Positions 1 through 57,636 of a stretch of DNA of 64,000 nucleotides are shown piece by piece. The stretch is taken from contig CASDVP010000007.1 in the NCBI GenBank assembly GCA_949284445.1, positions 19,107-83,106 of the forward strand, in the 5' to 3' direction. How positions within the stretch are numbered: position 1 is the stretch's first letter; each line of letters starts with the position of its first letter. The notes beneath the pieces are model-generated. The model was not told where the DNA came from and made no database searches. It worked only from the letters and a program-made list of their open reading frames with translations. Source of the stretch: an uncultured Bacillota bacterium. Its GTDB lineage: Bacteria; Bacillota_I; Bacilli_A; RFN20; CAG-288. A program made the translations under genes and the position numbers.

Positions 1-1589
1 AGGTTGTATTAGGTGACTTTGTCAAGACTCCGATCATTCCTAAAGGAGAGACTAAACCTGTTACTTTAACTCTGAAAGTCCAGGATATGGCATCTTATGA
101 TTATTCTGATGCAAACGAAAATGGTTTTGCAACTTACGAATTAGATCCAGGAGATTATCAGATCAGTTTAAGAAAGAATGCCCATGAGGTTATCTCTACT
201 CTAAACTATAAGATCGATGAAGAGTATATCTATGGGACTTCAGTGACTGAACACAAGGTTGAAAACCGTTTTGATGATGTTTCTGAACATATCACTAAAT
301 ACTTATCTCGTTCTGACTGGGAAGGCACTTGGCCGACTAGACCGACTGCTCAAGATCAAGAAGTGACGCAAGAATTCATCAATACTCTCAATTATTCGGT
401 CGATGACAAAGAAACTGATCCTTGGTATTCAAGCACTGCTCCGAATCAGAGCAAAACTCAGCTGACACGTGATCAATGCAAAGTGAAGATCTATCATCTT
501 TTTAATAAAGATTATGATGATCCTTTATGGGATGAACTTTTAGATCAATTGACAGTCAAAGAGATGACGGATATGATCGCAACTGGTAATTTCAGAACTA
601 TCGCTATGGATAATATCAAGAAACCTTTGACGATCGATGGTGATGGACCGATGGGCTTTGCAATCTTTATGGGTGATGATTGTATCTATGATACTTGTCG
701 CTATGCTTCAGAATCAGTCGTCGCTGCTACTTGGAACAAAGAATTAGCTTATAGACAAGGCTTGATGGTCGGAAATGAAGGACTCATCGGAAATGAAAGA
801 GAAGATAGTACACCATATTCAGGCTGGTATGCACCGGCGGTTAATATTCACCGTTCACCTTTCGGTGGAAGAAACTTCGAATATTATTCTGAAGATCCTA
901 TCTTATCTGGAAAATTAGCAGTCGAAGTCATCAAAGGCGCTAAAGAAAAAGGCGTGTATACCTATATCAAACACTTTGCCTTAAACGAACAAGAAACTAA
1001 TCGCGATACTTCTGGTTTAGTGGTTTGGGCTAATGAACAGGCTATGCGAGAACTCTATTTTAAACCGTTTGAATTAGCAGTCGTCGAAGGTAAGACTTCA
1101 GCCATGATGTCTTCGTTTACCCGTATAGGTACGACTTGGGCAGGAGGCTGTTATGAATTATTGACTGAAGTTTTAAGAGAAGAATGGGGATTTAAAGGCA
1201 TGGTCATCACTGATTTCAACCTCAAAGCTTACATGAACACTGATCAGATGATCAGAGCAGGTGGTGATTTAAACTTATCACCTTCTAAGGCTCCGACAAA
1301 AACTTCTACTCCTACTGATATCACCAATATCAGAAGAGCGGCTAAAAATATTTTGTACACTGTCGCTAATTCAAATGCGATGAATGGTCAAGATGATTCA
1401 GTTATCTATGGATATAGACTACCAGGTTGGGTCACGCTCCTCATCGTTATCGATTCCGTGTTTGCAGCTGGAGCGCTTGCTTTAGGTGGTTTATGGTTTT
1501 TCTTCAAAATGCAGAATAAACAATTGAGGTTAGAAGGTGAACAAAACGAAACTGAGAAAGGAGAAACAGAAACAAATGAACAAAATTAA
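1..1589 (+). CDS. Glycoside hydrolase family 3 (beta-glucosidase/beta-hexosaminidase-like), 5'-truncated by the window edge. C-terminal TM anchor plus acidic/Lys-rich tail.
   Basis: The reading frame is open from nt 3 with no stop, so the Met at 87 is internal. The translation carries GH3 catalytic-barrel motifs (KHFALNEQE; GFKGMVITDF with the Asp nucleophile context). It is paralogous to the ORFs at 42882..45842 and 48530..51385, for example shared ...LTSYDY... and WYAP.VNIHRSPF.GRN.EYYSEDP. The last ~50 aa are hydrophobic (GWVTLLIVIDSVFAAGALALGGLWFFF). Confidence 0.8.
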   Translation, partial: VVLGDFVKTPIIPKGETKPVTLTLKVQDMASYDYSDANENGFATYELDPGDYQISLRKNAHEVISTLNYKIDEEYIYGTSVTEHKVENRFDDVSEHITKYLSRSDWEGTWPTRPTAQDQEVTQEFINTLNYSVDDKETDPWYSSTAPNQSKTQLTRDQCKVKIYHLFNKDYDDPLWDELLDQLTVKEMTDMIATGNFRTIAMDNIKKPLTIDGDGPMGFAIFMGDDCIYDTCRYASESVVAATWNKELAYRQGLMVGNEGLIGNEREDSTPYSGWYAPAVNIHRSPFGGRNFEYYSEDPILSGKLAVEVIKGAKEKGVYTYIKHFALNEQETNRDTSGLVVWANEQAMRELYFKPFELAVVEGKTSAMMSSFTRIGTTWAGGCYELLTEVLREEWGFKGMVITDFNLKAYMNTDQMIRAGGDLNLSPSKAPTKTSTPTDITNIRRAAKNILYTVANSNAMNGQDDSVIYGYRLPGWVTLLIVIDSVFAAGALALGGLWFFFKMQNKQLRLEGEQNETEKGETETNEQN

Positions 1590-37447: not shown

Positions 37448-39985
37448 ATGGCAAGTTTAAAGCTCGAACACATTTACAAGGTGTATCCTAACGGAACAAA
37501 AGCAGTCAACGATGTCTCACTCGATATCAAAAATGGTGAATTCATCGTTTTTGTCGGTCCATCAGGTTGTGGTAAATCGACAACTTTAAGAATGATTGCT
37601 GGCCTAGAAGAGATCACGGCTGGTGAATTATATATCGATAACCAGATCGTCAATGATGTCGAACCCAAGGATAGAGATATCGCTATGGTTTTCCAAAACT
37701 ACGCCTTATATCCTCATATGACCGTCTATGAAAATATGGCTTTTGGTTTAAAGCTGAGACATGTTCCTGATGATGTGATTCAAGAAAAAGTTTTATGGGC
37801 TAGTGATATCTTAGGAATCAAAGAATATCTAGATCGTAAGCCTCGTGCGATGTCTGGTGGTCAAAGGCAGCGTGTAGCTTTAGGAAGAGCTATATTAAGG
37901 GATCCTAAAGTCATGCTTTTAGATGAGCCTTTATCTAACCTTGATGCTAAGTTGAGAACTCAGATGAGAACTGAGATTGCCAAACTGCATCAGAAGTTGA
38001 AGACGACTTTCATCTATGTCACTCATGATCAAGTCGAAGCTATGACGTTAGGAGATCGAGTCGTCGTCATGAAAGCCGGTCGCATTCAACAGGTTGATAC
38101 TCCTAAGAATTTATATGATTACCCTTCTAATATCTTTGTCGCTGGATTCATCGGAACACCTCAGATGAATTTCTTTGACTGCACATTGCTTAAAGAAGAC
38201 GAAAATATCATCATCAAATTTGAAAATGAAAATGTGCGATTAAAAGTTTCTTATAATCAATTGATAAAAGTCAATCCGGATTACTTAGATGGAAAGCATC
38301 CGATCATCTTAGGTATCAGATGCGAGCACGTGCATCTGACAGATAAAGCTGATTCCTTAGCTATCAAAGTCAAGATTTCAAGATTTGAAGAATTGGGATC
38401 TGAAGCACTGATCTATGCTAAGCTTAGCGACGATGATGATTCAATAGTTTCAGAAAAAGGACAGATGATCATCAAAACAGATAGGATCGATGATCTCAAA
38501 GCCGATGATGTCGCCTATGTGAGATTCGATTTATCACACACTTATTTCTTTGATAAAGAGACGGAAGAAACTATTACTCCAAGACTTCCAAAAGAAAATG
38601 TTTTCGATGTTAAATTATCAGAAAAAGAACTTGAATTATTAAATATCCGCTTACCTCTTCCAGAGGTTTTACAAGGTAAAAATGCTTCTGATGCTAAGCT
38701 TATAATTCCTGTGGATGCTTTTAGAATAGATGAAAAAGGAACTGATGTCAAAGTTGTTGATAAAGAAGTTCTAAACGGAATTAAACTATATCATCTATGC
38801 CTTAATAATCGTGTCTTTTTCGCTGTTTTAGATGAGGATTTAGAGATTGGAAAAGAGGCAAAGTTATCTTTTGATTATTCTGAGATAACTGTTAAAAAAG
38901 ATGATGAAGTAATAATAGAGCCTCTTAAAGAATATGATGAATATAAAGCTGCTTTTTATAATTACCAAACCGTTATTTCTAAAGGAGATTTTTCTGAATT
39001 TACCCAGCTTAGAGATGATAAGATCAAAGCAGCTACTCAGTATATGGACGCTCAGATCTTATTAGAAAATAATGAGTATGAAAAACAGAGATTAGCTCTC
39101 AGTGAACTGACTGAAGAAGAGAAAGCTGACTCGAATAAACAATTGCAAGAATTTATATCTAAAAATAAAGCTGAAATCAAAAAGATCAAAGCTGAGAATA
39201 AAAAAGGAGCTAAAGAACTCAAACTTAAATTTAATGTGTTAAAGAAAAAGCTTAAAGCTGATAATGATCGATTATTCGATCAGAAGAAAGAGCTTGAGAT
39301 CAAAGAATATAATGAATTCAAACAGAATAATAAAGACGTAGATGCTCTCAAGCGACGTAAGGATGAATATCATATCTTCAAAGATAATTTGCAGACTGAA
39401 AAAGAAAACACTTTGAATTTAGCTATCAATGGAGCGACGATGGATTATGAATCTAAACTTTCTTCTTTGAATGCTTCTTCAAGAAGAAAGATCACTCTTT
39501 TAAAGAAAGAGATCACTGAAAAGAAGAAAGAATATGCTCGTCAGATAAACGGTGAAAAAGTTTTATCTAAAGAACATCAAAAACGCTTGAAAGTTTTGGA
39601 AACCAAACGAAAAGAAGCTATCGAAAGAGCGTCATTAGTCTTCTTCTTTAAGATCGAAAATGAGTGCTATTCTTTATTGACTGATATCATCTCTAATAAA
39701 TTGATACAAGGCTTAGGGACAAGAGTGTTCAGCAAAGAATTTAAGGTCGAAGTTCCTCATGATGCTTATAAGCTGACTCATTCATCAAATTCGATAAAAG
39801 GGACTGTGATTGATAATTTAAACTTTGAATCAGCTTTATTTGCCAAGATCAAATTAAATTCACTCGATAAATATATCTATATGAAAGTAGACAAACCTTT
39901 AGAGATCAACAAAGAAGTATCTCTTGAAATCGATGTTTCTAAAGCTATGATCACTGAAACTGGCATGAATATCAGGTTGTATTAG
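37448..39985 (+). CDS. Sugar ABC-transporter ATPase (MalK/MsmK-like). It carries a C-terminal extension of about 475 aa: a Lys/Glu-rich coiled coil followed by a second MOP/TOBE-like domain.
   Basis: N-terminal 370 aa: Walker A GPSGCGKST, signature LSGGQRQRVALGRA, Walker B LLDEPLSNLD and a TOBE domain. Residues 500-700 are low-complexity K/E repeats. The C-terminus is EFKVEVPHDAYKLTHSSNSIKGTVID... Confidence 0.85.
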   Translation: MASLKLEHIYKVYPNGTKAVNDVSLDIKNGEFIVFVGPSGCGKSTTLRMIAGLEEITAGELYIDNQIVNDVEPKDRDIAMVFQNYALYPHMTVYENMAFGLKLRHVPDDVIQEKVLWASDILGIKEYLDRKPRAMSGGQRQRVALGRAILRDPKVMLLDEPLSNLDAKLRTQMRTEIAKLHQKLKTTFIYVTHDQVEAMTLGDRVVVMKAGRIQQVDTPKNLYDYPSNIFVAGFIGTPQMNFFDCTLLKEDENIIIKFENENVRLKVSYNQLIKVNPDYLDGKHPIILGIRCEHVHLTDKADSLAIKVKISRFEELGSEALIYAKLSDDDDSIVSEKGQMIIKTDRIDDLKADDVAYVRFDLSHTYFFDKETEETITPRLPKENVFDVKLSEKELELLNIRLPLPEVLQGKNASDAKLIIPVDAFRIDEKGTDVKVVDKEVLNGIKLYHLCLNNRVFFAVLDEDLEIGKEAKLSFDYSEITVKKDDEVIIEPLKEYDEYKAAFYNYQTVISKGDFSEFTQLRDDKIKAATQYMDAQILLENNEYEKQRLALSELTEEEKADSNKQLQEFISKNKAEIKKIKAENKKGAKELKLKFNVLKKKLKADNDRLFDQKKELEIKEYNEFKQNNKDVDALKRRKDEYHIFKDNLQTEKENTLNLAINGATMDYESKLSSLNASSRRKITLLKKEITEKKKEYARQINGEKVLSKEHQKRLKVLETKRKEAIERASLVFFFKIENECYSLLTDIISNKLIQGLGTRVFSKEFKVEVPHDAYKLTHSSNSIKGTVIDNLNFESALFAKIKLNSLDKYIYMKVDKPLEINKEVSLEIDVSKAMITETGMNIRLY

Positions 39986-41640: not shown

Positions 41641-42857
41641 ATGAAGAAAAAAGCATTAGGCTTAGTCGCTTTATCGCTAGTATTCGGTATGTCATTTGCT
41701 ACTTCATTGATCTCTTGTACCAAAACTAGTTCGACAGTTGGGGGGGTGGTCAAACTGAAAAGATCTTAGAATCCATCGCAGTCACTAAAGCACCCACCAA
41801 AACCACTTATTTAGAAGGAGAAGAATTCGATAAATCAGGTATGGAAGTCACTGCTACTTACAGTGATGATTCCACTGAAAAGGTTAACAATTATCGCATC
41901 AAAGTCGCACCAGATGGTCCTTTAACTCCGAGTGATACATCCGTTACGCTCACTTATGAAGATAAATCTACTACTCAAGCTATCACTGTCAATGCGATCG
42001 TTTGCACCAAATTAGAGATCACTAAAGATCCTATCAGCACCGTCTTCGCACGTGGTGGCACCTATGACTTCACCGGCTTAGAAGTCACAGCTACTATCGA
42101 ACATCAGGATGAACCTAAAGTATTGAGCACTGATGAATACACCTTAACAGTCGGCGGTAAAACAATCAAAGATGGTGATACTGTTGAATTAGATGGTGCA
42201 GAAGCCTCTTATCCTGTCACTGTCAGTTATAAGAATCAAACTGATACCTTCGATATCAGAGTCATCAACGGTTATAAGATTGAAGGCGAAAATATCCTCT
42301 ATACTGAACCAACCGATGAAGATAATAATTTCGTAAGATTAAAACTATCTGAAGACTCAGGCTATTTAACTGAACCGAGTAAAAATGGTACCATTCGTGC
42401 TGTATCTGGAGTGGCTGATGCTGAATATGCAAGTGGAAAAGCATACTTAGGTGACTTAAAGAATGGTAACGTCATTGAGTTCTATTTCAGAAGTGAAGTT
42501 GCTACTACTGCTGATATTTCTATTTCCGCCGCAAGCGGTTATCTAGTTAAAGATGATGGTAACTGGACTCCTGAAGAAATGGGCGATATGCAGTTTAATA
42601 AAACTGTCACAGTGACACTTAATGGTACTGTAGCTAATGTTCCTGATGATGTCATCCTTGAAGGTGGAACTCCTGAAGATGTCGGTGGTGTCAATGCTAT
42701 GCTTTGGACTAACTGGAAGACAGTTAACTTTGGAACAATGGAAGTTAAAGAAGGACTCAATGTTGTTAAGTTTGTAGTTGCTAGTGAATATACAAATTGC
42801 CACAATGGCAGCTGTGCGTTCAACTTAGACTATTTATCTGTTGATTTTGGAGCTTAA
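41641..42857 (+). pseudogene. Surface lipoprotein gene split by a frame change at a poly-G tract. A 42-codon lipoprotein signal peptide ORF (41641-41769) is followed by a 338-aa ORF (41841..42857) that encodes two Ig-like repeats and a C-terminal beta-sandwich domain. It is either a phase-variable gene or a frameshift pseudogene.
   Basis: The signal peptide MKKKALGLVALSLVFGMSFATSLISC has a lipobox. A G7 run sits at about 41740-41746. Downstream of the tract, in the frame of the 338-aa ORF, the sequence is open back to the tract and encodes ...GGQTEKILESIAVTKAPTKTTYLEGEEFDKSGMEVTATY..., which is a complete Ig-like repeat. One extra G would fuse the two ORFs. The C-terminal domain resembles that of the 1576..2247 lipoprotein. 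Confidence 0.6.
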
Positions 42858-42881: not shown

Positions 42882-45842
42882 ATGAAATTAAAACTCAATA
42901 AACTTACGCCTGGTAGGATAGCTCAACTCATCGGTGCTGGTGTATTATCAATCGCCTTTATAGCTGGCACATGTGTAGCAGCTTATTATGCACCTATGAT
43001 CACCACGTTCTTGTGTGGTACTGGTGTCAGTTTCGAAACTGAAGAATTCAAACAATCTGCTAAATTATCTGATCAACTTTGTCAAGAAGTTGCTGAAGAA
43101 GGTGTTGTTCTTCTTAAAAATAAAGACAATGCTTTACCAATCAATACCGACAAAGTGAATATCTTCGGTTGGAGAGCTACTGATCAAGGCTTCCATCTCT
43201 CTGGTATTGGTAGTGGTGCTTCTACTATCAATGAGAATAAGAAGGTCACTTTGTTAGATGCATTTGAAAAAGAACATATCGACTATAATAGCGAATTGAT
43301 TGATTTCTATAATAGCTATGATTCTTTTAATGGTGGATATGGCACTGGCAATGGTGAACGTATGACCTTCAGAGAGCCATCTCTAAGCGATTATAGTGAT
43401 GAGTTATGGGCAAATGCCATTGACTATTCTGATACTGCAATTGTTGTTCTTTCTAGAGTCTCTGGTGAAAACGTCGACGAAATTCCGATGTATCAGAATA
43501 AAGCTCATCAATCTCGTGATAATGATAGACATTATCTTGAACTCACTACTGAAGAAGAAGCTTTGCTTCAAAATTGTCGTGAGAATTTTGATAAAGTCAT
43601 CGTCTTATTAAACACATCCAATCAAATGGAATTAGGTTTCTTAGACGAATATGATATCGATGCCTGCTTGTTAGTCGGTCTCACTGGTCAATCTGGTGCT
43701 TTAGCTATTCCTCGTATCTTAAAAGGTGATATCAATCCTTCAGGTCGTACAACTGATATTTATCCATATGATTTGACTTCTGATCCGACATTTAATAATT
43801 ATGCTAGAAGTGGAGATCATGTCACCTATGTAGAAGATATCTATTATGGTTATAAATACTATGAGACAAGATATGCTAACGACGAAAATGGTTATAAAGC
43901 TGCTATCCAATTCCCGTTCGGATATGGTTTATCATATACTGATTTTGACTGGAATCTCGATAGTATGACTATCGATGGTGAAGAATATGATGTCTCTGGT
44001 TATAATGATACAAAGCCGATTGAATTAAGCAAAGATACAGAAGTGGAACTTTCTTTCAGCTGTCATAACAGCGGTGCTGTTGATGGTGCTGATGTCATTC
44101 AACTCTATGTCAATGCGCCATACACTAAAGGTGAAATTGAAAAACCAGTCACAAAGTTAGTCGATTTTGCTAAGTCAACCAGTGTTCCTGCTGGTAAATC
44201 TCAAACTGAGATCACTATGTCATTCACCGCATATGATTTAGCTTCTTATGACGCTTATGATGCTAATGATAATGATGCTGCAACTTGGGAATTAGATGCT
44301 GGTGAATATTCTCTTAACTTTATGGATAACTCTCATGAAGCTAAGACGATGACATCAGATGGCAATGGTATCAATTCTTTAAAGTTCGAAGTCAAGAATG
44401 ATATCGTCTATGATACCGATCCGGTAACCGGTAATGAAGTCACCAATCGTTTCACTGGTGCAGATGCAATCGCTGGAGTTCCTATCGATGGAAGTACTGT
44501 TTTCAGTCAACCAGTCGATTATTTATCTAGAGCTGATAATTTTGCTAACTTACCTAAAGCTCAAGGACAGCCTTCTAATTCTAATGAAGTTTCTAAAGCT
44601 AATAATTATAGTAACACCGGTTTTGATCAAACAGAGATGCCTACTCTCGATCAAAATAATGGTCTCTATCTCCACACTCGTAAAGATGGTAGTAAGGCTA
44701 CATTAGAAGAATTAAATGGCAAGAACTTCACTGAAACAGGTCCTCTTGCATATAACGATGAACTCATCAATGAAATCGGTGCTAATTATGATTCTGAAAA
44801 GCTTGATCAACTTGTCGATCAATTAAGTGCCAATGATGCTTGTAAAATAGTTGAGGATTCCGGCTTTGGTTCTCCAGCTGTTGAATCTATCGGTAAAGCT
44901 CGTGCTTATGACTTTGATGGTCCTGCTGGATTCAATAGTAACACCCAGACCGGTGTCACTTCAGGTGAGTGGACTGCTTATCCTAATCAAACGTTAATCG
45001 GTCAAACCTTCTCTAAACGTCTTGCAAAACAGATCGGCTTATCAATGGGTGCTGAAGGAAAAAATACTGATTTACAAGGATGGTATGCTCCTGTTGTCAA
45101 TCTCCATCGTTCACCATTCAATGGTAGAAACTATGAGATGTATTCAGAAGATCCAGTCTTAAGTGGTAAATTAGGTGCTCAGACTATCGATGGTGCTAAG
45201 GCTAATGGTGTCTATTGCTTCCTTAAACACTTTGGTCCGACAGAACCTGGTCAAAACTCTCGTAATCAAAACTCTTGGATGACTGAACAAAACTTACGTG
45301 AAAATTACTTCAAAGCTTTCGAACTTGCTGTCAAAGAAGGTGGATGTAATGCTGTCATGTCTTCATTCAGTTCTTTAGGTGGTGTTTGGACTGGTGCTAA
45401 CAACGGTATCTTCGTTGATATCTTAAGAAATGAATGGGGATTCAGAGGTTGTGTCTTAACTGACTGGTGCGATGGCGGCGGTAACATGAATTGCCACGTT
45501 GGTGTCAGAGGTGGAAATGACATCTGGCTCAATCCTAATGTCGGTAATAACAGGAGTAAATTAGACAGAAGCAATCCTACTGAAGTCTATTGCGCAAAGC
45601 AAGCTGCTAAGAACGTTATCTACACTATTTGTAACACTAGATACTATTCACAAACCTATGATCATTCTCAAGATGAAATGGTCTTCCCGATCGGTGAAGC
45701 AAGTATCAATGTTCCATTTGCTTGGTGGATTCCAACTTTAGCTGCTATTGATGTCGTGATGATCGGTGGTTCTCTTGTCTGGGCTGGTTTCACACTCTTC
45801 TATCATAAAAAAGAGAAAGAAACTGAACAAGAACAGAACTAG
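42882..45842 (+). CDS. Glycoside hydrolase family 3, with a domain-permuted order (alpha/beta sandwich, then Fn3-like, then catalytic barrel) and predicted TM anchors at both termini.
   Basis: N-terminal signal-anchor (IAQLIGAGVLSIAFIAGTCVAAYY). GH3 alpha/beta-domain motif EEGVVLLKNKDNALPI. Catalytic barrel near the C-terminus (KHFGPTEPGQ...; GFRGCVLTDW). C-terminal TM segment (WWIPTLAAIDVVMIGGSLVWAGFTLFY) with a charged tail. 986 aa. Confidence 0.85.
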   Translation: MKLKLNKLTPGRIAQLIGAGVLSIAFIAGTCVAAYYAPMITTFLCGTGVSFETEEFKQSAKLSDQLCQEVAEEGVVLLKNKDNALPINTDKVNIFGWRATDQGFHLSGIGSGASTINENKKVTLLDAFEKEHIDYNSELIDFYNSYDSFNGGYGTGNGERMTFREPSLSDYSDELWANAIDYSDTAIVVLSRVSGENVDEIPMYQNKAHQSRDNDRHYLELTTEEEALLQNCRENFDKVIVLLNTSNQMELGFLDEYDIDACLLVGLTGQSGALAIPRILKGDINPSGRTTDIYPYDLTSDPTFNNYARSGDHVTYVEDIYYGYKYYETRYANDENGYKAAIQFPFGYGLSYTDFDWNLDSMTIDGEEYDVSGYNDTKPIELSKDTEVELSFSCHNSGAVDGADVIQLYVNAPYTKGEIEKPVTKLVDFAKSTSVPAGKSQTEITMSFTAYDLASYDAYDANDNDAATWELDAGEYSLNFMDNSHEAKTMTSDGNGINSLKFEVKNDIVYDTDPVTGNEVTNRFTGADAIAGVPIDGSTVFSQPVDYLSRADNFANLPKAQGQPSNSNEVSKANNYSNTGFDQTEMPTLDQNNGLYLHTRKDGSKATLEELNGKNFTETGPLAYNDELINEIGANYDSEKLDQLVDQLSANDACKIVEDSGFGSPAVESIGKARAYDFDGPAGFNSNTQTGVTSGEWTAYPNQTLIGQTFSKRLAKQIGLSMGAEGKNTDLQGWYAPVVNLHRSPFNGRNYEMYSEDPVLSGKLGAQTIDGAKANGVYCFLKHFGPTEPGQNSRNQNSWMTEQNLRENYFKAFELAVKEGGCNAVMSSFSSLGGVWTGANNGIFVDILRNEWGFRGCVLTDWCDGGGNMNCHVGVRGGNDIWLNPNVGNNRSKLDRSNPTEVYCAKQAAKNVIYTICNTRYYSQTYDHSQDEMVFPIGEASINVPFAWWIPTLAAIDVVMIGGSLVWAGFTLFYHKKEKETEQEQN

Positions 45843-46372: not shown

Positions 46373-47719
46373 CTAGCTTTCTTTATCAGGTATTGAAACT
46401 GTGATTGTAAAGACATCATCATCGATTGTAATCTCTGATATTCCATCATACTTATGAGCTAATAATTCGATGCTTTTGATTCCTAGTCCGTGATTGACTT
46501 TGTCGCTTTTATGAGTTTTAAAGGACTTATTATTCTGATCGTATTGAATATCACCGCTGAAATAGTTGTAACAGACAATCTTAGATAAATGCTGTTTATC
46601 ACTGACATCTACAGAAATGATTCTCTTTTCTTTGTTTTGAATTTGCATGACGGCTTCGATTGCGTTATCAAGGATATTTCCTACTAGTGTATATAAATCA
46701 GTGTTAGACACTTCTTTAAAGGCATTAGGATTGACATTCATCGTCAGCTTGATATCGTGTTTTTTGCAATAATACCATTTTTCTTGCAAGATGATATTTA
46801 AGACCTGGTTATCAGTGACTATGATTTCATTATAGGCGCTGATATCATCATCTAATTGATTCAACAATTCTTCGGCTTCTTTTCCGCCTTGTCTCAGAAT
46901 TCTCACTTGATGTTTTAAATCATGAGCTTTAATCTTTAAAGCTTCCATATTGGTTTTAGCATATTTATATTGCCATTCTTGCTGTTTTAATAGTCTTGAA
47001 GCGATGTAATTATCAATCTTCAGATCATTGTTTCGTTTGACAAAGTTATCAAAAGAGATGATCAGAGTGAGAGATAAAAGCTCTGAGATCATCGCCATGA
47101 TGTACATGAGACTGTTATCACGGCTGAAATATTCGCAGATAGAGCTGAGGATGATATTAAATAAGATGATTATACTGTAGAAAAAGAACAAGGGTTTATC
47201 TAACTTGTTCAGTGATGAATCGATGATGTTTTTGAGCAAGAGAATGCCAAAAATGAGATAGACAAATAGATAAGTGCCAACATAAAGGAATCCGCTAGCG
47301 ACCGTGATGTGTGAGATATCAAGAAAGTTCAAACTAGGATTGAATCCTTCGACGATCAAGATATAGATCGAAAAAGAAAACTGTCTTAAGGAATAAGCTT
47401 TTAAATAATTAGAAAACAATTCATATGGTCCGCCTTTAAAGAGGATTAACATCCATAAAAAGATGACGCCAAAAAGAAGTATATAACAGAAACAAGAAGT
47501 GAAAATGATCGCGACATTATTGTAGTTTACGGCTTCAAAAAAATAATTTTCAAAATAAGTGAGACCAGCTATAATACCTGCTAAAATTATAAAACCACTT
47601 ATTAATTTTAAAATAAAATGCTTTCTTCTCTCCAGCTTGTAGAAAAATAAAAAAGAAGCGAGCAAAGTCTCTATGATCAGAAGCGTCCATCTGAACGCAT
47701 AAAATGAAATCGAGTTCAT
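46373..47719 (-). CDS. Membrane sensor histidine kinase of the HPK10 (AgrC/LytS-like) type, GHKL ATPase.
   Basis: 6-7 N-terminal TM helices. H-box region KAHDLKHQVRIL. The C-terminal HATPase region has an N-box (NILDNAIEA) and G-box (HGLGIKSIE). It lies 4 nt downstream of the LytTR regulator gene. Confidence 0.75.
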   Translation of the reverse strand: MNSISFYAFRWTLLIIETLLASFLFFYKLERRKHFILKLISGFIILAGIIAGLTYFENYFFEAVNYNNVAIIFTSCFCYILLFGVIFLWMLILFKGGPYELFSNYLKAYSLRQFSFSIYILIVEGFNPSLNFLDISHITVASGFLYVGTYLFVYLIFGILLLKNIIDSSLNKLDKPLFFFYSIIILFNIILSSICEYFSRDNSLMYIMAMISELLSLTLIISFDNFVKRNNDLKIDNYIASRLLKQQEWQYKYAKTNMEALKIKAHDLKHQVRILRQGGKEAEELLNQLDDDISAYNEIIVTDNQVLNIILQEKWYYCKKHDIKLTMNVNPNAFKEVSNTDLYTLVGNILDNAIEAVMQIQNKEKRIISVDVSDKQHLSKIVCYNYFSGDIQYDQNNKSFKTHKSDKVNHGLGIKSIELLAHKYDGISEITIDDDVFTITVSIPDKES

Positions 47720-47723
47720 GATT

Positions 47724-48431
47724 TTAATTTATATATGAGCTAAAAGCTAATAAGAAACTGTCTTTATACATCCTAGTCAAAGGGATGCGATTATCGCTAT
47801 CAGTGAGTATAACTTCTTGTTTATTGATCTCTTTCACATATTTTAAGTTTACTAAAAAGGAATTAGATGGGCGAGCAAATTTATTAGAGATAGTTGCTGA
47901 TAATTCCTTCATGGTGCCTCTGACAATATGGGTTTTATCTTTTAAATGGATATATAAATAATGTTTGATGATCTCGAAATAAAGGATGTCGTTTTCTTTC
48001 AGGGTGATGATTCCATCAGTTGATTTAAAAGTCAGGATTTTGTCACTTTCTTTATTGATGCGTTTGAGGGCTTTTTTGATTTTTAATGAAAATTCAAAAT
48101 AGCTTAGTGGTTTTAAGATATAATCGATAGCATCGACATCATAGCTATCTACTGCAAATTGAGCAGTTTTAGTTATGAACATGATCGGAATATCTGGGTT
48201 AGTTAATCTTATTTTCTTAGCGACATCGATACCATTGACTTGTTCATTCAGAATGATATCTAGAAGAACTAAGTCATAGTTATTAAAATCCAGTTTTAAA
48301 AACTCATCGGATTTACTGAGAGCAGTGAGCTCATATCCGATATCGTTTTCCTTAGAAAAGCGAGAAAGAAACTCCTCAGTGATCTTTCTTTCAGCTTCTT
48401 CATCTTCTAATAATGCAATTCTAAGTTTCAT
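47724..48431 (-). CDS. Response regulator with a LytTR DNA-binding domain (AgrA/LytR family).
   Basis: Receiver domain (MKLRIALLEDEE...DLVLLDI) and LytTR domain (ILTFKSTDGIITLKENDILYFEI...LYIHLKDKTHIVRGTMKEL). Confidence 0.85.
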   Translation of the reverse strand: MKLRIALLEDEEAERKITEEFLSRFSKENDIGYELTALSKSDEFLKLDFNNYDLVLLDIILNEQVNGIDVAKKIRLTNPDIPIMFITKTAQFAVDSYDVDAIDYILKPLSYFEFSLKIKKALKRINKESDKILTFKSTDGIITLKENDILYFEIIKHYLYIHLKDKTHIVRGTMKELSATISNKFARPSNSFLVNLKYVKEINKQEVILTDSDNRIPLTRMYKDSFLLAFSSYIN

Positions 48432-48529: not shown

Positions 48530-51385
48530 TTAAGCGTTGTCTTCTGGTTGATCTTTCTTGGATTTCTTGTTGAGGATGTACATCAACCAGCAATAACCAA
48601 TTCCACCTAATGATAAGACGAAGACAAGACAATCGACAGTGATCAAGACAGGTCTCCACGGGAATGTCCAGGCTGTACTGGCGATCAGATCACCAGAATC
48701 ATTGACTTTATATGATTCATCGACTGCCCAGGAATTAGTGATCGCATAACAGATGTTTTTAGCAGCGCGATGGATGTAATATTGCATGGTTTTATCGTTT
48801 TGATAATCAGTGAGTTGCCAGTTGCTTTGATTGGTGTTTAACCAAATATCTGTGCCAGCCCATAATCCGGAAACGATATCTTGATAGAACATTGCAGAGA
48901 CACTGGCTTGGTCGGTGATGACCATTCCTTTAAATCCCCATTCATCTCTGAGCAATTCGGTCATCGCACCTCTATGAGCACCGATCCAACGAGAACCGAT
49001 TCTATTCATAGCAGCCATCAAGGCATTGGTTCCACCTTCGACTGCACCTTCAAAGCCTTTGGTATAGATTTCACGGATAGCTTGTTCATTAGCGAAGATC
49101 GCACCACCATAACGATTGGTTTCCTGATCGTTTAAGAAGAAGTGTTTGGTATAAGTGATGACACCTTTGGATCTCAAGCCTTCGACTTCACTTTTTGCCA
49201 TCTCATATGAGAGATGGGCATCTTCAGAATAATATTCAAAATTACGACCGGAATATGGTGAACGATGGATATTAGCACCAGGGCCATAGACACCAGCGAC
49301 ATTGATTGAGATGGTATCTTGACCAAATAAGACACCTAAATCATGGATCAGTTCAACGTTCCAAGTGGAAGCCATCAACACTTCAGCCGGCCAAGCCATT
49401 GAACTGACACCGCTGACTAATGTTCCAGAAACACCGCTAGGTCCATCCTTATCTTGAGTAGGTGGCAAACCGATTTTGTCGATTTGAATGGTAGAATAAC
49501 CGCCTAATCTGATGAGTCTAGTCATCTGTGAATAAGATAATTGATTGACTAAGTCATCCCATTTTGGATCATCATAAGGAACACCGATTAAATCTTTGAC
49601 TGAATATGAAGTAGATGTGCTGTTTTGAGTGAATGTGAAATTATTGATCGCTTCATCATCTTCAGTATCAGTGTTTACATCGTAAAATGGTAAGTCATCA
49701 AGTAGATCTTGGCTAGCATTCCATGAGCCATTAGAATAAGTTGTTGGATATGTACCTCTCCAATCACTTCTGGATAAATATTTGTATTCAGATTCAGAAT
49801 AATAGTTTATATCTACATCTTCAAAGAGGTTTGTGATCTCTGTACCTGTGTCTGAGGTGCTATAAGTAGTTGAATCAGTGCTTTCTTGGTTGAATGCTAC
49901 TTTTGCAAAAGAGCTGTTACCATCATAGTCCATGCCATCAGCAGTGGTCTTTCCCTTCAAAGCGAGAATATTGTTTAAAGCATCATGAGCATTTCTACCG
50001 ACGGATAAATAATAATCACCTGGAGTCAAGACATAAGTTTTAGCTGTTTGATAATCATAAGAGGTCAAATCTTTTTTATCGACGGTGATAGTGACATCGG
50101 TTTCAGCATCTTTAGCTAATTCAATAGTTTTGCTGAACCCGACTAATTCGACAGATGAAGTTTCTACTCCACCTTTTGTATATGGCTTTTGCGCATATAG
50201 TTCAACAACATCTTTTCCGGCTCTATCACCGGTGTTTTTGACATGAACGGTGACATCAAATGATTTTTTATCATCGCTTTCAGTCACTGAGAAGTTAGAC
50301 CATTCAAAAGTTGTATAGCTAAGACCATATCCGAATGGATATTGGACCTCAGAAGTATAGTCATAATCACCAGCATTTCCTTGTCCGAGGACTCTATCTT
50401 CGTATCTGGTCTCATAATATCTATAACCGACATAGATACCTTCACCATAGACTAAGTATTTATTTCCTCTGTCGACATTGCTGTTAGTGATGTTGTAATC
50501 TCCGAAATTTTGGATTGAAGGAGCGCTTTTTGAATCATAGGCATAAGTATCGACTAATCTTCCTGAAGGATTGACATCGCCTTTTAAAATATTAGGAATC
50601 GCATACATACCTTCTTGACCAACACCGCCAATCCAAAGGGCAGCTTTGATGTTTTCGTATGCAGGATCTTCTAAGACATCTAGTTCGATCGGATTATTAG
50701 TGTTGATGACAAGAATGACTTTGTCAAAATTATCGCAAGCTAATTTTAATAAGTCACGTTCGTTTTGATCGATTTGTAAATAAGTATATCCAGTGTTTAA
50801 ATCAGCAGTCGGAATATCGGCGCTCTCTCCACCGCTTCTTCCTAAAGAGACAACGGCTACATCATCGTCTTTCAAGGAACTTATCACTTTATCAGTGTAG
50901 ACGTTTTGTGGAACTTCATTGACAGCAAAGTCACCCTTTCCAGATTGATCGGGAGTCTTTTTACGATAACCTTTGCCAGCGCCAGAAGTGTAGAAATTCC
51001 ACAATGTTTCATTGACTTTATAGCCTTCTCGTTCAAATGCGCTCTTTAAAGTCGGTGCATTAGCTGTATCAACTGATCCTGAACCAGAGCCACCATAGAC
51101 GAAATCAACTGAATTCTGACCTAATAATGCAACATTAGTCTCAGCAGCTGCTAATGGTAAAGCATTATCTTCATTCTTTAATAAGACAGTGCCTTCATCA
51201 GCGACTTCTTCACACAATTTTTTGGATGCTTCACTAGCAGTATAATCACTTCTAGTGAGATAAACATCGAGCAGGTTTTGATATTGATAAGCAAATATTG
51301 TTCCTACAATCAAAGCAGCAGATAAGATTCCACCTATTGAAGTTGTGATGATCGCTGCTTTCAAAGAGACTTTTCTCTTTTTCAT
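48530..51385 (-). CDS. Glycoside hydrolase family 3, paralog of the 42882..45842 gene. Same permuted, doubly membrane-anchored architecture.
   Basis: N-terminal TM (AAIITTSIGGILSAALIVGTIFAY). EEGTVLLKNEDNALPL. Catalytic barrel near the C-terminus (KHFFLNDQETNR...GFKGMVITDQ). C-terminal TM (VLITVDCLVFVLSLGGIGYCWLMYIL). 951 aa. Confidence 0.85.
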   Translation of the reverse strand: MKKRKVSLKAAIITTSIGGILSAALIVGTIFAYQYQNLLDVYLTRSDYTASEASKKLCEEVADEGTVLLKNEDNALPLAAAETNVALLGQNSVDFVYGGSGSGSVDTANAPTLKSAFEREGYKVNETLWNFYTSGAGKGYRKKTPDQSGKGDFAVNEVPQNVYTDKVISSLKDDDVAVVSLGRSGGESADIPTADLNTGYTYLQIDQNERDLLKLACDNFDKVILVINTNNPIELDVLEDPAYENIKAALWIGGVGQEGMYAIPNILKGDVNPSGRLVDTYAYDSKSAPSIQNFGDYNITNSNVDRGNKYLVYGEGIYVGYRYYETRYEDRVLGQGNAGDYDYTSEVQYPFGYGLSYTTFEWSNFSVTESDDKKSFDVTVHVKNTGDRAGKDVVELYAQKPYTKGGVETSSVELVGFSKTIELAKDAETDVTITVDKKDLTSYDYQTAKTYVLTPGDYYLSVGRNAHDALNNILALKGKTTADGMDYDGNSSFAKVAFNQESTDSTTYSTSDTGTEITNLFEDVDINYYSESEYKYLSRSDWRGTYPTTYSNGSWNASQDLLDDLPFYDVNTDTEDDEAINNFTFTQNSTSTSYSVKDLIGVPYDDPKWDDLVNQLSYSQMTRLIRLGGYSTIQIDKIGLPPTQDKDGPSGVSGTLVSGVSSMAWPAEVLMASTWNVELIHDLGVLFGQDTISINVAGVYGPGANIHRSPYSGRNFEYYSEDAHLSYEMAKSEVEGLRSKGVITYTKHFFLNDQETNRYGGAIFANEQAIREIYTKGFEGAVEGGTNALMAAMNRIGSRWIGAHRGAMTELLRDEWGFKGMVITDQASVSAMFYQDIVSGLWAGTDIWLNTNQSNWQLTDYQNDKTMQYYIHRAAKNICYAITNSWAVDESYKVNDSGDLIASTAWTFPWRPVLITVDCLVFVLSLGGIGYCWLMYILNKKSKKDQPEDNA

Positions 51386-51410: not shown

Positions 51411-52496
51411 TTAAGCGTTAGGATCAGTTAAAGACATTTCAGCAGCACCATCTTTGAAGTAGCAGACATATTCTTGACCATAAGCTTTGATGACATCTTC
51501 TTTGCCTTGAGCCATGTTCTTTTCACCTTGGGTTTTAGCAGGTAATTCTGTCGGATAAACTTGATTTTTATCTCCAGTATTGATCTGAATATTAAAACCA
51601 CCTGCTTTAGAATAGGAATTTAATAAGACATCACTAGCAGTGCCTAAAGTGGTCTTGGTATAGCCATCAACCGGTGCGTCTTGAGTATAGGTGCCTTGAT
51701 TATAAACAATGGTGGTTGCTAATATTTGCGAATATCCGTATTGAACATTAGTTGAGAAATATTCGTATTTATCATCAGTGTAAGTGATGACTATATCAAT
51801 TTTAGCGTCATAAGAACCTTCGCCCATGCTTCCTGGCACCGCAGTTTTATCAGTGATTCTGACATCTTTAAAATCACTTGTTAATAATTTAGAGACATCA
51901 CCAGAAGCGGTGGAAACAGTCGTTTTGACTTTGCTACCATCTTCATTTGATTCCTCTGTTTCATTCGGATCAGTGAAAGAGAAGACGTTTTTACTATCTT
52001 CGGCATAAATTTTAAAACCGGTAGCATAATCGCTGTTAAGAACATCTTCTTTGTTCTGAGCCATGTTCTTTTCACCTTGGGTTTTAGCAGGTAATTCAAC
52101 TGGGTAAACCTGATCCTTATCAGCGGTGTTTATAGCTATAGAAAAACCACCGGCGGTAGAATAAGAATTGATGAGGAATTCACTCGCTTTATTGAGATCA
52201 TATCCAGTGACACCATCTTCAGAGGCTCCTTTAGTATAAGTGCCGTAACGAATACTGGCAGTTGAAGCCATGACCATGCCATAGCCATAATTGACTGAAG
52301 TGTAGATCATCTCATAAAGACCACCTTCGTAGAATTGAACTTGATAAGCATCAGCAACCCATCCACCATAAGCGTTGGTGTAGGTTTCTGAATAGGCATA
52401 AGAATCGATCAATTCAGCTTTTTGTGTTGTGTTTCCACAGGCTGTAAGACCGCTTACAGCTAAGAGAGATAATAAGGGTAATAATACTTTTTTCAT
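51411..52496 (-). CDS. Surface lipoprotein with an internal tandem duplication, immediately upstream of and co-oriented with the GH3 gene.
   Basis: GGAGG lies 8 nt before the ATG of MKKVLLPLLSLLAVSGLTACG (lipobox); the track ORF starts 12 codons earlier. Two repeats of about 180 aa each end ...AGGF.I.INT.DK.QVYP.ELPAKTQGEKNMAQ.KEDV. The DNA repeat gttcttttcaccttgggttttagcaggtaattc occurs near 51519 and 52063. Confidence 0.65.
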   Translation of the reverse strand: MKKVLLPLLSLLAVSGLTACGNTTQKAELIDSYAYSETYTNAYGGWVADAYQVQFYEGGLYEMIYTSVNYGYGMVMASTASIRYGTYTKGASEDGVTGYDLNKASEFLINSYSTAGGFSIAINTADKDQVYPVELPAKTQGEKNMAQNKEDVLNSDYATGFKIYAEDSKNVFSFTDPNETEESNEDGSKVKTTVSTASGDVSKLLTSDFKDVRITDKTAVPGSMGEGSYDAKIDIVITYTDDKYEYFSTNVQYGYSQILATTIVYNQGTYTQDAPVDGYTKTTLGTASDVLLNSYSKAGGFNIQINTGDKNQVYPTELPAKTQGEKNMAQGKEDVIKAYGQEYVCYFKDGAAEMSLTDPNA

Positions 52497-52821: not shown

Positions 52822-53010
52822 ATGGCAGTACCTTTTAGAAGAACTGGTGTCACCGCTAAGAGATTGAGAAGAACTCATTTTGTTTTAAAAGCTACCAATA
52901 CTCAATCTTGTTCTCATTGTGGTGCACAAATCCAACCTCACCGCGTTTGCCCTAATTGTGGTTTCTATAGAGGCAAAAAGGTTATTGAAGTTAAATCTTC
53001 CGCTGAATAA
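52822..53010 (+). CDS. rpmF: 50S ribosomal protein L32.
   Basis: MAVPFRRTGVTAKRLRRTHF...CSHCGAQIQPHRVCPNCGFYRGKKV is typical L32 with Zn-ribbon cysteines. GGAGGA RBS. Confidence 0.9.
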   Translation: MAVPFRRTGVTAKRLRRTHFVLKATNTQSCSHCGAQIQPHRVCPNCGFYRGKKVIEVKSSAE

Positions 53011-56658: not shown

Positions 56659-57636
56659 ATGCCAGAAGAAAATCGAATGAATGAAATAATCGATGACCGC
56701 TATAAAGTCGAGAGCGCCTTAGGCAAAGGCGGCATGGCCATCGTTTATAAAGCACATGATCTCATCACTGATAAAGATGTCGCCGTCAAAATGATGAAAG
56801 ATGATACGGCTTCTGATAAAGTCAATCTTTCCCGTTTTGAACGTGAAGCTCGTGCAGCTGCTAGCTTGAATCATCAGAACATCGTCAAAGTGGTCAATGT
56901 CGGATCTTATAATGGTTTACCATATATGGTGAACGAGTTTGTTCAAGGTCAAACTTTGAAACAAGTGTTAGATGTCCGAGGTAAATTTTCCTTTCTAGAA
57001 GCTTGTGACATCATGTATCAGCTATGTTCAGCAGTGATCTATGCTCATCAGCACGGTGTCATTCATCGCGATATCAAGCCTATGAATATCTTTTTAACGA
57101 GAGATGGAACGATCAAATTAGGTGATTTCGGTATCGCAACTTTCCAGAATTCAACCCATGTTACCCGCTCTGATTTCGTCATCGGTTCAGTTCATTATAT
57201 GGCACCGGAAGTCGCACAATCCAATCCGGCTACTGAAAGAAGTGATATCTATTCTATGGGAATCACTTTCTTTGAACTCATCACTGGCCGTGTTCCGTTT
57301 GATGCTGAAAGCCCAGTTCAAGTAGCTGTCATGCAAGCTAAGGACAAGTTCCCTTCCATCAAGAAATTCAATCCTAAGACACCGGAATGCATCGAAGCTA
57401 TCATATATAAAGCTTGCCAAAAAGATCCGTTAGATAGATATTTTTCTGCTGAAGATATGCGCAAAGATATCGAGAGAATTTTAAGAAACACCTCTTTATT
57501 AAAAAAGAAAAGCAGTTTCTTTTATAACCTTTTGCATCCTCATTCACCTGATAATGAGGCAAGACGTGTTGAAAAGAGGCAAAAACGCGCTTTAAAAAAA
57601 GCTGCTAAAGCTGCTAAGAGTGATAAGAATGAGTGA
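56659..57636 (+). CDS. Hanks-type Ser/Thr protein kinase. Catalytic domain only; no TM segment or PASTA repeats.
   Basis: GKGGMAIVYKA...VAVK (Gly loop and Lys). HRDIKPMNIF. DFGIA. APE. 325 aa with a basic C-terminal tail. Confidence 0.85.
   Translation: MPEENRMNEIIDDRYKVESALGKGGMAIVYKAHDLITDKDVAVKMMKDDTASDKVNLSRFEREARAAASLNHQNIVKVVNVGSYNGLPYMVNEFVQGQTLKQVLDVRGKFSFLEACDIMYQLCSAVIYAHQHGVIHRDIKPMNIFLTRDGTIKLGDFGIATFQNSTHVTRSDFVIGSVHYMAPEVAQSNPATERSDIYSMGITFFELITGRVPFDAESPVQVAVMQAKDKFPSIKKFNPKTPECIEAIIYKACQKDPLDRYFSAEDMRKDIERILRNTSLLKKKSSFFYNLLHPHSPDNEARRVEKRQKRALKKAAKAAKSDKNE

Follow-up and report, generated by a model that had tools for sequence, protein, structure and literature searches.

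Covarying terminal helices and a putative membrane hairpin in circularly permuted GH3 enzymes of an uncultured Bacillota bacterium

The window analyzed here, a 64,000-nucleotide stretch of DNA from an uncultured Bacillota bacterium, encodes three GH3 paralogues (A, B and C), and among relatives the hydrophobic helices at the two chain ends covary, including swaps of polar residues, which is a new observation. With moderate confidence, we propose that B, C and probably A are active exo-acting GH3 enzymes on the outer membrane face, held by an uncleaved N-terminal helix and a C-terminal helix paired as a hairpin and probably under the control of a LytTR regulator and a kinase. According to this proposal, the chain would start inside the cell, its N-terminal signal-anchor helix would cross outward, the sandwich, Fn3 and barrel domains would fold at the external surface of the cytoplasmic membrane, and the C-terminal helix would return the chain, so that a short basic tail ends inside. 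The permutation would bring the chain ends together, and the helices would therefore pack antiparallel into one membrane hairpin, stabilized by a buried polar pair (N/T30-D957 in B numbering). This hairpin would act as a single tether that keeps the enzyme near the membrane, where beta-linked oligosaccharides could be trimmed beside uptake systems. The LytTR/multi-pass-kinase pair encoded next door probably controls expression, and paralogue C probably acts with an adjacent lipoprotein.

Paralogue B (42882..45842, + strand) encodes 986 aa, and C (48530..51385, − strand), identified by ORF, Pfam and hydropathy analysis, encodes 951 aa with the architecture of B. Paralogue A is partial; its frame (3..1589, + strand) is open for 528 codons up to a stop and covers the C-terminal 528 aa. 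In the Pfam scan, PF01915, PF14310 and PF00933 followed one another at aa 75-352, 404-479 and 690-863 of B and at aa 66-321, 392-465 and 663-855 of C, all above gathering cut-offs. The bit scores of PF00933 and PF01915 were 105.1 and 99.5 in B and 101.6 and 113.5 in C, with curated cut-offs of 27 and 31 bits, respectively. The barrel is therefore last in the chain, which bears out the reversed GH3 order given in the preliminary description. On the + strand of B, the (alpha/beta)6 sandwich matched by PF01915 lies at 43104..43937 and carries the acid/base Glu196, the Fn3-like domain matched by PF14310 lies at 44091..44318, and the PF00933 match to the (beta/alpha)8 barrel core lies at 44949..45470 with the nucleophile Asp861, K782-H783 and R749. 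The architecture that had been ascribed to all three ORFs is complete in B and C and holds in A for the Fn3 end, the barrel, the C-terminal helix and the charged tail, the N-terminal half of A being outside the window. As for the motifs quoted earlier, EEGVVLLKNKDNALPI, KHF and GFRGCVLTDW are all found in B, but TDW is replaced by TDQ in C and by TDF in A. A, B and C are 31-36% identical to one another (33-36% for A versus B and C) and are old paralogues.

Both sequence search and Foldseek gave 5k6o/5k6l and 5wug as the best PDB matches of B. B was colinear with 5k6l over query residues 67-485 and 641-883 in the PDB sequence alignment, and its AF2 model (pLDDT 91.7, pTM 0.91) matched the permuted structure 5k6o in Foldseek with a TMt of 0.81 over about 900 columns, compared with 0.47 over about 455 columns for the canonical structure 2x41. 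E196 and D861 of B were aligned to Glu-143 and Asp-709 of GlyA1 (PMC5104943), and E196, D861, K782, H783 and R749 are each present in all 325 relatives listed. No equivalog among the NCBIfam models scored above its own cut-off for these GH3s; the best partial matches were to arabinopyranosidase, beta-glucosidase and xylosidase models, and A also gave partial matches to GH3 models. B, C and probably A appear to be exo-acting, catalytically competent beta-glycosidases from the GlyA1-type permuted subfamily of GH3, and their substrates would belong to the class of beta-linked oligosaccharides.

The permutation itself cannot be counted as novel, since structures with this order have been solved and named since 2016, as for GlyA1 (PDB 5K6L; PMC5104943) and PbBgl (5WUG). 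GlyA1, a beta-glucosidase/beta-xylosidase from a rumen metagenome (PDB 5K6L-5K6O; Ramirez-Escudero et al., 2016, PMC5104943), has the order sandwich, FnIII, barrel as in B and is the best match of B in both sequence and fold, with the nucleophile and acid/base at equal positions. Unlike B, it is a soluble protein of about 26% identity that has an extra C-terminal domain and no terminal hydrophobic helices, and membranes are not mentioned in its description (PMC5104943). PbBgl (PDB 5WUG/5WVP; Paenibacillus barengoltzii) and BrGH3A are likewise permuted beta-glucosidases colinear with B, and neither is given a membrane anchor in the description cited; BrGH3A lacks a signal peptide and was proposed to be intracellular (PMC11233000). 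The canonical GH3 enzymes, such as barley ExoI, BglX and T. neapolitana Bgl3B (2X40), share the two catalytic domains and their residues, but place the barrel first and are soluble or periplasmic. Also among the closest known proteins are the "secreted GH3 with C-terminal TMH" entries of Butyrivibrio, namely those of PUL7/21/33 in B. proteoclasticus (PMC2914790) and the 982-aa bgl3D of B. hungatei (PMC5716241), which are of similar size, have a C-terminal TM helix and, like C, each adjoin a LytTR response regulator. These are genome-table entries in which the N-terminal segment is taken as a secretion signal, with no helix pairing, topology or biochemistry reported. The literature on double-anchored GH3s yielded only these two Butyrivibrio mentions, in a table and in text (PMC2914790, PMC5716241). 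The C-terminal TM helix of such GH3s had already been noted in these Butyrivibrio genome papers. A, B and C differ from all characterized permuted GH3s, which are soluble, by their terminal hydrophobic helices, solubility not being a formal criterion, and represent an uncharacterized form of a known kind of enzyme.

Hydropathy scans (Kyte-Doolittle, 19-residue windows, threshold ≥1.6) detected a single hydrophobic segment near either terminus and no other in between, at residues 16-40 and 950-973 of B and 12-30 and 908-938 of C, in accord with the terminal helices noted before; the fragment of A has one at residues 477-495. The N-terminal membrane helix of B (aa ~13-36; 42918..42989, + strand; KD 2.16) is preceded by the basic tip MKLKLNKLTPGR, and the C-terminal membrane helix (aa 949-973; 45726..45800, + strand; KD 1.75), which starts with W949 and contains the intramembrane D957, is followed by the predicted cytoplasmic tail YHKKEKETEQEQN (45801..45839, + strand), assigned by hydropathy and charge. 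The corresponding hydropathy-based positions are 51293-51358 (N-terminal helix) and 48572-48655 (C-terminal helix) on the − strand for C and about 1425-1505 on the + strand for the C-terminal helix of A. The terminal segments of all three are flanked by K/R-rich tips and K/E tails. In the AF2 model of B, the N-terminal helix spans residues 10-35 (pLDDT 87-88) and the C-terminal helix residues 949-973 (pLDDT 89). Both helices were found in 295 of the 325 relatives listed; the conserved residues are G29, N/T30, A33 and Y36 in the N-terminal helix and W949 (303/325) and D957 (253/325) in the C-terminal helix. Across the 295 relatives, the median net charge was +3 before and −1 after the N-terminal helix, and 0 before and +3 after the C-terminal helix, the tail being counted over 12 aa. 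This positive-inside bias at both ends supports the outside placement of the enzyme suggested earlier. Some homologues have long cytoplasmic tails.

Pairing of the two helices is suggested by covariation in 325 sequences (Neff 183), with statistics lacking tree correction. The strongest pairs between the N- and C-terminal helices formed an antiparallel ladder (15/971, 19/967, 23/964, 30/957, 33/953, 37/950 and 41/947; r = −0.82), in which the pair 30/957 ranked 230 of 343,206 pairs by MI-APC. N or T at position 30 occurs together with D957 in 228 sequences, 11 sequences belonging to at least four lineages combine D30 with N957, and E957 accompanies R30 in six sequences and H30 in two. D957 was retained in none of the 21 sequences having D, R or H at position 30 (Fisher 1e-15, no tree correction). 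The antidiagonal band statistic was not decisive alone, as the "parallel" diagonal control, owing to pairs clustered at the outer end, peaked locally at a similar height; the hairpin is argued here instead from the polar swaps together with the full-length ladder. These data argue that the two terminal helices pair as an antiparallel hairpin. In GlyA1, moreover, the chain start and end lie side by side and form a two-stranded sheet (PMC5104943). Adjacent chain ends and an antiparallel helix-helix ladder would together make a one-point tether and do not support the idea that the enzyme is "held flat" on the membrane. In 19 relatives, an additional TM helix and a K/R loop precede the conserved N-terminal helix, which is then internal. 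Since this helix covaries with the C-terminal helix and is internal in these relatives, it seems to behave as a retained anchor, which argues against its cleavage and favors the signal-anchor proposed for it earlier.

Next to the GH3 genes, a LytTR-type response regulator (47724..48431, − strand; PF00072 and PF04397) is encoded 98 bp downstream of C on the same strand, together with a histidine kinase (46373..47719, − strand; HATPase_c_5) that has about six membrane helices and lacks a large outside domain, and whose hydropathy peaks at aa 8, 35, 76, 144, 177 and 203 are separated by short loops. Homologues of the regulator and of the kinase adjoin GH3 genes in 27 and 30 of 80 loci, respectively, and of the 37 double-helix loci with full flanks, 19 carry both within about 6 kb, frequently in the order RR-HK-GH3 on a single strand. 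A LytTR link to such GH3s was already noted in B. proteoclasticus (PMC2914790). On the basis of synteny only, GH3 expression is probably under two-component control; near the operon of GH3 C, a scan for promoters and terminators turned up chance-level matches only. Two lipoprotein genes, both with lipoboxes, also border the enzymes. The one beside C (51411..52496, − strand; lipobox LTAC), with its likely start at ATG 52496 behind AGGAGG, encodes two repeats of one domain. The repeat domain is fused to GH3 in Lachnospiraceae homologues, where it follows one further TM helix past the C-terminal helix, and BLASTP matched the lipoprotein to the C-terminal extensions of P0247 and P0259 with E values of 1e-16 and 7e-18. 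The Lachnospiraceae forms also differ from B by one extra N-terminal TM helix. The other lipoprotein gene (41641..42857, + strand), 24 bp upstream of B, encodes Big_3-like repeats and a beta-rich C-terminal domain, and its frame is broken at a G7 run in the window.

Surface glycosidases of Bifidobacterium bifidum have been described with a cleaved signal and a C-terminal helix as anchor. By analogy, the N-terminal helix here might be an ordinary Sec signal peptide, leaving a mature type I enzyme anchored by its C-terminal helix, a reading that we consider unlikely. It fits the basic n-region, the hydrophobic core and the subsequent G29, N/T30 (G29-N30 being a possible helix breaker) and small residues at 31 and 33, which give a tolerable −3/−1 pattern (V/I/C/S/A at 31 in 234/325 and A/T/C/G at 33 in 275/325), as well as the Butyrivibrio annotations (PMC2914790, PMC5716241). 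However, residues 15, 19, 23 and 30 covary with the C-terminal helix, including charge and polarity swaps, conservation of specific residues is unusual for a signal peptide, the uncharged N-terminal stretch spans a median of 32 residues, the AF2 pLDDT is high, and the helix lies behind another TM helix in the 19 relatives. The lipobox pattern [LVI][ASTVI][GAS]C was absent from C, and the IAGTC of B departs from it by a T at position −1. It seems very improbable that the C-terminal helix and basic tail are instead a sorting signal of LPXTG or CTERM type cut by a sortase-like enzyme. The three-part layout, with a conserved W-W-I-P-x-L motif followed by hydrophobic helix and basic tail, recalls such signals, but the motif was seen on these GH3s only, A, B and C contain no LPXTG, no NCBIfam sorting-domain model matched at E ≤ 0.01, the helix covaries with the N-terminal one, and some homologues continue beyond it with TM helices and domains. 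The IPTL of B was considered as a known CTERM tag and rejected as one variant of the W-W-I-P-x-L consensus, with no sorting model matched. An inverted topology, with cytoplasmic catalytic domains and short tips pointing outward, would suit the characterized permuted GH3s, all soluble and without signal peptides (PMC5104943, PMC11233000), but it conflicts with the charge bias at both ends and with the fusion homologues, in which a single TM helix separates the C-terminal helix from a domain that is a lipoprotein in the window and therefore lies outside the cell; we give it hardly any credence.

Intramembrane-sensing kinases can rely on an accessory membrane protein, as BceS does with BceAB and LiaS with LiaF. 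The kinase here may be comparable, as it has no outside domain and is encoded beside a membrane protein with a large outside part, but the partner would be a glycosidase and the kinase belongs to the HATPase_c_5/LytTR-partner type. It is conceivable, if rather unlikely, that the GH3 hairpin contacts the adjacent multi-pass kinase, so that the enzyme would sense sugars outside the cell for a signaling module of three parts; that the paired helices dock on the kinase and relay substrate binding or turnover through the membrane to the LytTR regulator seems doubtful. The GH3-RR-HK synteny across Bacillota and Actinomycetota (PMC2914790), the kinase with its roughly six TM segments, short loops and no outside domain of its own, and a hairpin elaborated past anchoring needs by the polar pair, the extra helix and the long cytoplasmic tails are in line with sensing. 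On the other side, the RR/HK pair is missing from about half of the loci, A and B have no pair of their own in the window, the catalytic residues are all retained, and plain transcriptional control explains the synteny equally well.

The preferred arrangement, an active enzyme on a membrane hairpin, appears widespread in Gram-positive bacteria. Homologues were recovered from Butyrivibrio and Pseudobutyrivibrio (L013, L017), the homologue set of C comprised 120 full-length relatives, and double-helix GH3s occur, among the matches listed, in cultured walled Bacillota and Actinomycetota including Butyrivibrio, Streptococcus suis, Bifidobacterium and Demequina. Anaerobium acetethylicum, Streptococcus suis HCJ31 and Bifidobacterium asteroides are among the cultured carriers, and homologues number more than 7,500. 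Because these walled genera share the architecture, a wall-less host, to which the preliminary description had tied the two-ended anchor, was dropped as its explanation. Permuted GH3s have so far been studied solely as soluble proteins, and the hairpin form is apparently common in gut and rumen Gram-positive relatives. Provided that the hairpin exists, circular permutation brought the chain ends together and allowed a two-helix anchor, a sortase-independent way to hold an exo-glycosidase at the membrane beside sugar transporters. The GH3, the LytTR two-component system and the lipoprotein partner would form a small conserved module that could explain the sensing and processing of beta-linked oligosaccharides in some Firmicutes and Actinobacteria, processes that are far less understood than the Sus-like systems of Bacteroides. 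Should the sensor role be true, the glycosidase would be the sensor arm of a Gram-positive polysaccharide-utilization switch. As to the host of the window, a Ser/Thr kinase of 325 aa that lacks PASTA repeats was the sole hint of a wall-less organism.

The three GH3 reading frames given in the preliminary description, at 1..1589 (partial), 42882..45842 and 48530..51385, proved to be real. GH3 B (42882..45842, + strand) encodes 986 aa and GH3 C (48530..51385, − strand) 951 aa, and GH3 A (3..1589, + strand) is truncated by the window edge, with 528 codons up to the stop, leaving its C-terminal half readable and its N-terminal half beyond the edge. Pfam HMM searches placed the domains of B and C in the order PF01915 (sandwich), PF14310 (Fn3-like) and PF00933 (barrel), all above the gathering thresholds, as had been claimed for a barrel-last enzyme. 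A 19-residue hydropathy scan of B and C revealed a single segment long enough to span the membrane at either terminus and nothing between, and in A a single segment, at its end. The proposed common architecture of the three copies therefore holds for B and C, and A can be followed only through its C-terminal half, where the C-terminal membrane helix (C helix) is present. The pairwise identities of 31–36% indicated old paralogues, and B and C have separate sets of 120 full-length relatives apiece.

A PDB sequence search with B returned as top matches 5k6l (GlyA1, rumen metagenome) and 5wug (Paenibacillus barengoltzii), both colinear with B. The AlphaFold2 model of B (48-sequence input; pLDDT 91.7, pTM 0.91) superposed best on 5k6o/5k6l, with a target TM-score of 0.81, and also on 5wvp/5wug; alignments with canonical GH3s covered only about half the length. 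Sequence alignment to 5k6l matched E196 of B to the GlyA1 acid/base Glu-143, and D861 to the nucleophile Asp-709. These two residues, together with K782, H783 and R749, were unchanged in 325/325 aligned relatives, so proteins of this type look like working glycosidases. With none of the NCBIfam equivalog models did these proteins reach the cut-off, so the models assign no substrate. Both the enzyme family and the circular permutation are already known: the "permuted domain topology" subfamily was defined in the GlyA1 paper in 2016 (PMC5104943), and BrGH3A was added to it in 2024 (PMC11233000).

Among the first 120 homologues, an N-terminal hydrophobic segment was found in 117 and a C-terminal one in 106; in most of those without a segment at the C-terminal end, the C helix lies further inside the chain and is followed by a long tail. 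Both terminal segments occurred in 295 of 325 non-identical relatives, which, with the scans of B and C, bears out a predicted membrane helix at both ends. The proposed link to a wall-less host was not upheld, since a genome scan found this architecture in cultured bacteria that have a cell wall, including, among the matches listed, Anaerobium acetethylicum, Butyrivibrio, Fusibacter, Streptococcus suis, Bifidobacterium asteroides, Alloscardovia, Demequina, Cryobacterium and Thermophilibacter. The window is a chromosomal segment that carries rpsB-tsf-pyrH-frr-uppS-cdsA-dxr-rseP and polC. Its PrkC-like Ser/Thr kinase (56659–57636, + strand), of only 325 aa, lacks PASTA repeats and adjoins a PP2C phosphatase; nothing else hints at a wall-less way of life, and the finding fits, without proving, a peptidoglycan-free host.

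In the 295 relatives, the median net charge of the 12-residue stretches was +3 before and −1 after the N-terminal membrane helix (N helix), and 0 before and +3 after the C helix. This is the positive-inside pattern, which predicts both chain tips in the cytoplasm and the enzyme outside. Gene fusions provide an independent check on this location. In P0247, P0255 and P0259, Lachnospiraceae relatives of C, the C helix is followed by a short charged loop, one more TM helix and a domain homologous (E 1e-16 and 7e-18 for P0247 and P0259) to each of the two repeats in the lipoprotein whose gene (51411–52496, − strand) immediately precedes C; the lipoprotein has no Pfam family. As the lipoprotein domain is extracellular, exactly one extra helix is required if the GH3 tail is cytoplasmic. 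This Rosetta-stone link also suggests that the lipoprotein and C cooperate. Some relatives depart from the two-helix build: 19/325 (L011, L013, L015–L017, L019, L036, L043, L058 and others; Butyrivibrio, Pseudobutyrivibrio, Anaerobium, Alloscardovia) begin with a further TM helix and a K/R-rich loop that come before the conserved helix, three membrane helices in total, and 29/325 (P0046, P0047, P0049, P0053, P0079, P0090, P0112 and P0116 among them) have cytoplasmic tails of 40 to >200 residues past the C helix, several with K/E-rich heptad-like repeats that suggest coiled coils inside the cell.

The N helix could alternatively be a signal sequence removed by cleavage, in keeping with the small residues at 31 and 33 after the helix, G29 and N/T30 ahead of them, and the name "secreted" given to such proteins by the annotators of Butyrivibrio (PMC2914790). 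However, position 30 of the N helix and position 957 of the C helix vary jointly: N or T is matched by D in 228 sequences, D30 by N957 in 11 from at least four lineages, R30 by E957 in six and H30 by E957 in two, and wherever position 30 is D, R or H (21 sequences) D957 is lost (Fisher 1e-15; covariation set Neff 183, statistics ignoring sequence kinship). This pair ranked 230 of 343,206 in a whole-protein MI-APC scan. The strongest N-by-C pairs (15/971, 19/967, 23/964, 30/957, 33/953, 37/950, 41/947) formed an antiparallel ladder of roughly heptad spacing, with i+j of 982–991 for 17 of the top 20 (r = −0.82); a parallel-diagonal control reached a local maximum similar to that of the antiparallel band, from a cluster at the outer end.

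Cleavage is also opposed by the 19 relatives, mostly Lachnospiraceae, in which the conserved helix is internal, by the pLDDT of 87–89 of both helices in the model of B, and by the GlyA1 crystal, where chain start and end pair in a two-stranded sheet and are thus adjacent (PMC5104943). We consider it somewhat probable that the two helices are retained as an antiparallel hairpin. Such a hairpin would tether the enzyme at a single point near the membrane, which the ladder and the adjacent GlyA1 ends favour over the earlier picture of an enzyme "held flat". The juxtamembrane cysteines C45 (FLCGTG) and C67 (LCQ) of B occur together in 70 relatives, versus C45 alone in nine, and may form a disulfide outside, from the post-helix segment to the first ectodomain helix.

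On the strand of C, 98 bp downstream, lies a LytTR response regulator gene (47724–48431, −), followed by a HATPase_c_5 histidine kinase gene (46373–47719, −) whose product has about six membrane segments and, by hydropathy, no large outside domain. Homologues of the pair occurred within about 6 kb of GH3 in 27–30 of 80 loci, and both were near GH3 in 19 of 37 double-helix loci with full flanks; the one-strand order regulator-kinase-GH3 was frequent in Bacillota and Actinomycetota alike. In B. proteoclasticus, three LytTR regulators were found to have a "secreted GH3 with a C-terminal TMH" as neighbour (Kelly et al., 2010, PMC2914790), one apiece, and the entry for B. hungatei bgl3D (982 aa) reads likewise (PMC5716241), so that these Butyrivibrio enzymes resemble C in both the C-terminal helix and the LytTR neighbour.

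We propose that the N helix, inserted by Sec as a signal-anchor, would pair within the membrane with the C helix, which would act as a stop-transfer segment, and that the ectodomain would cut terminal beta-linked sugars off oligosaccharides at the surface, near importers. Expression would be tuned by the LytTR system, and the lipoprotein partner of C would probably aid in substrate binding. A bolder version, in which the hairpin signals to the kinase and the enzyme is a sensor, is compatible with the evidence and appears unlikely. Genome papers had already touched on the C-terminal helix and on the association with LytTR genes (PMC2914790, PMC5716241). A literature search covering few subscription journals found no description of the proposed retained, paired two-helix anchor, nor of its two-phylum spread, the extra-helix and fused variants or the lipoprotein link.

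Upstream of B is a maltodextrin cluster (GH77, SBP, two permeases, GH13, MalK), and three lipoprotein genes immediately precede B. The frame of the one next to B (41641–42857) is broken at a G7 run (41740–41746); in three further assemblies of this species the run is G8 and the lipoprotein, of 405 aa, is intact (lipobox LISC, Big_3-like repeats). The difference is due either to phase variation or to a sequencing error in the homopolymer. In the maltodextrin cluster, the MalK-like ABC ATPase (37448–39985, + strand) has 845 aa, about 500 residues above the usual, with a C-terminal part that has no Pfam match. Upstream of the lipoprotein-GH3 C operon, a small, previously unlisted ORF (52822–52995, − strand) resembles a ribosomal protein of the zinc-ribbon kind (CxxC...CxxC, L32-like).
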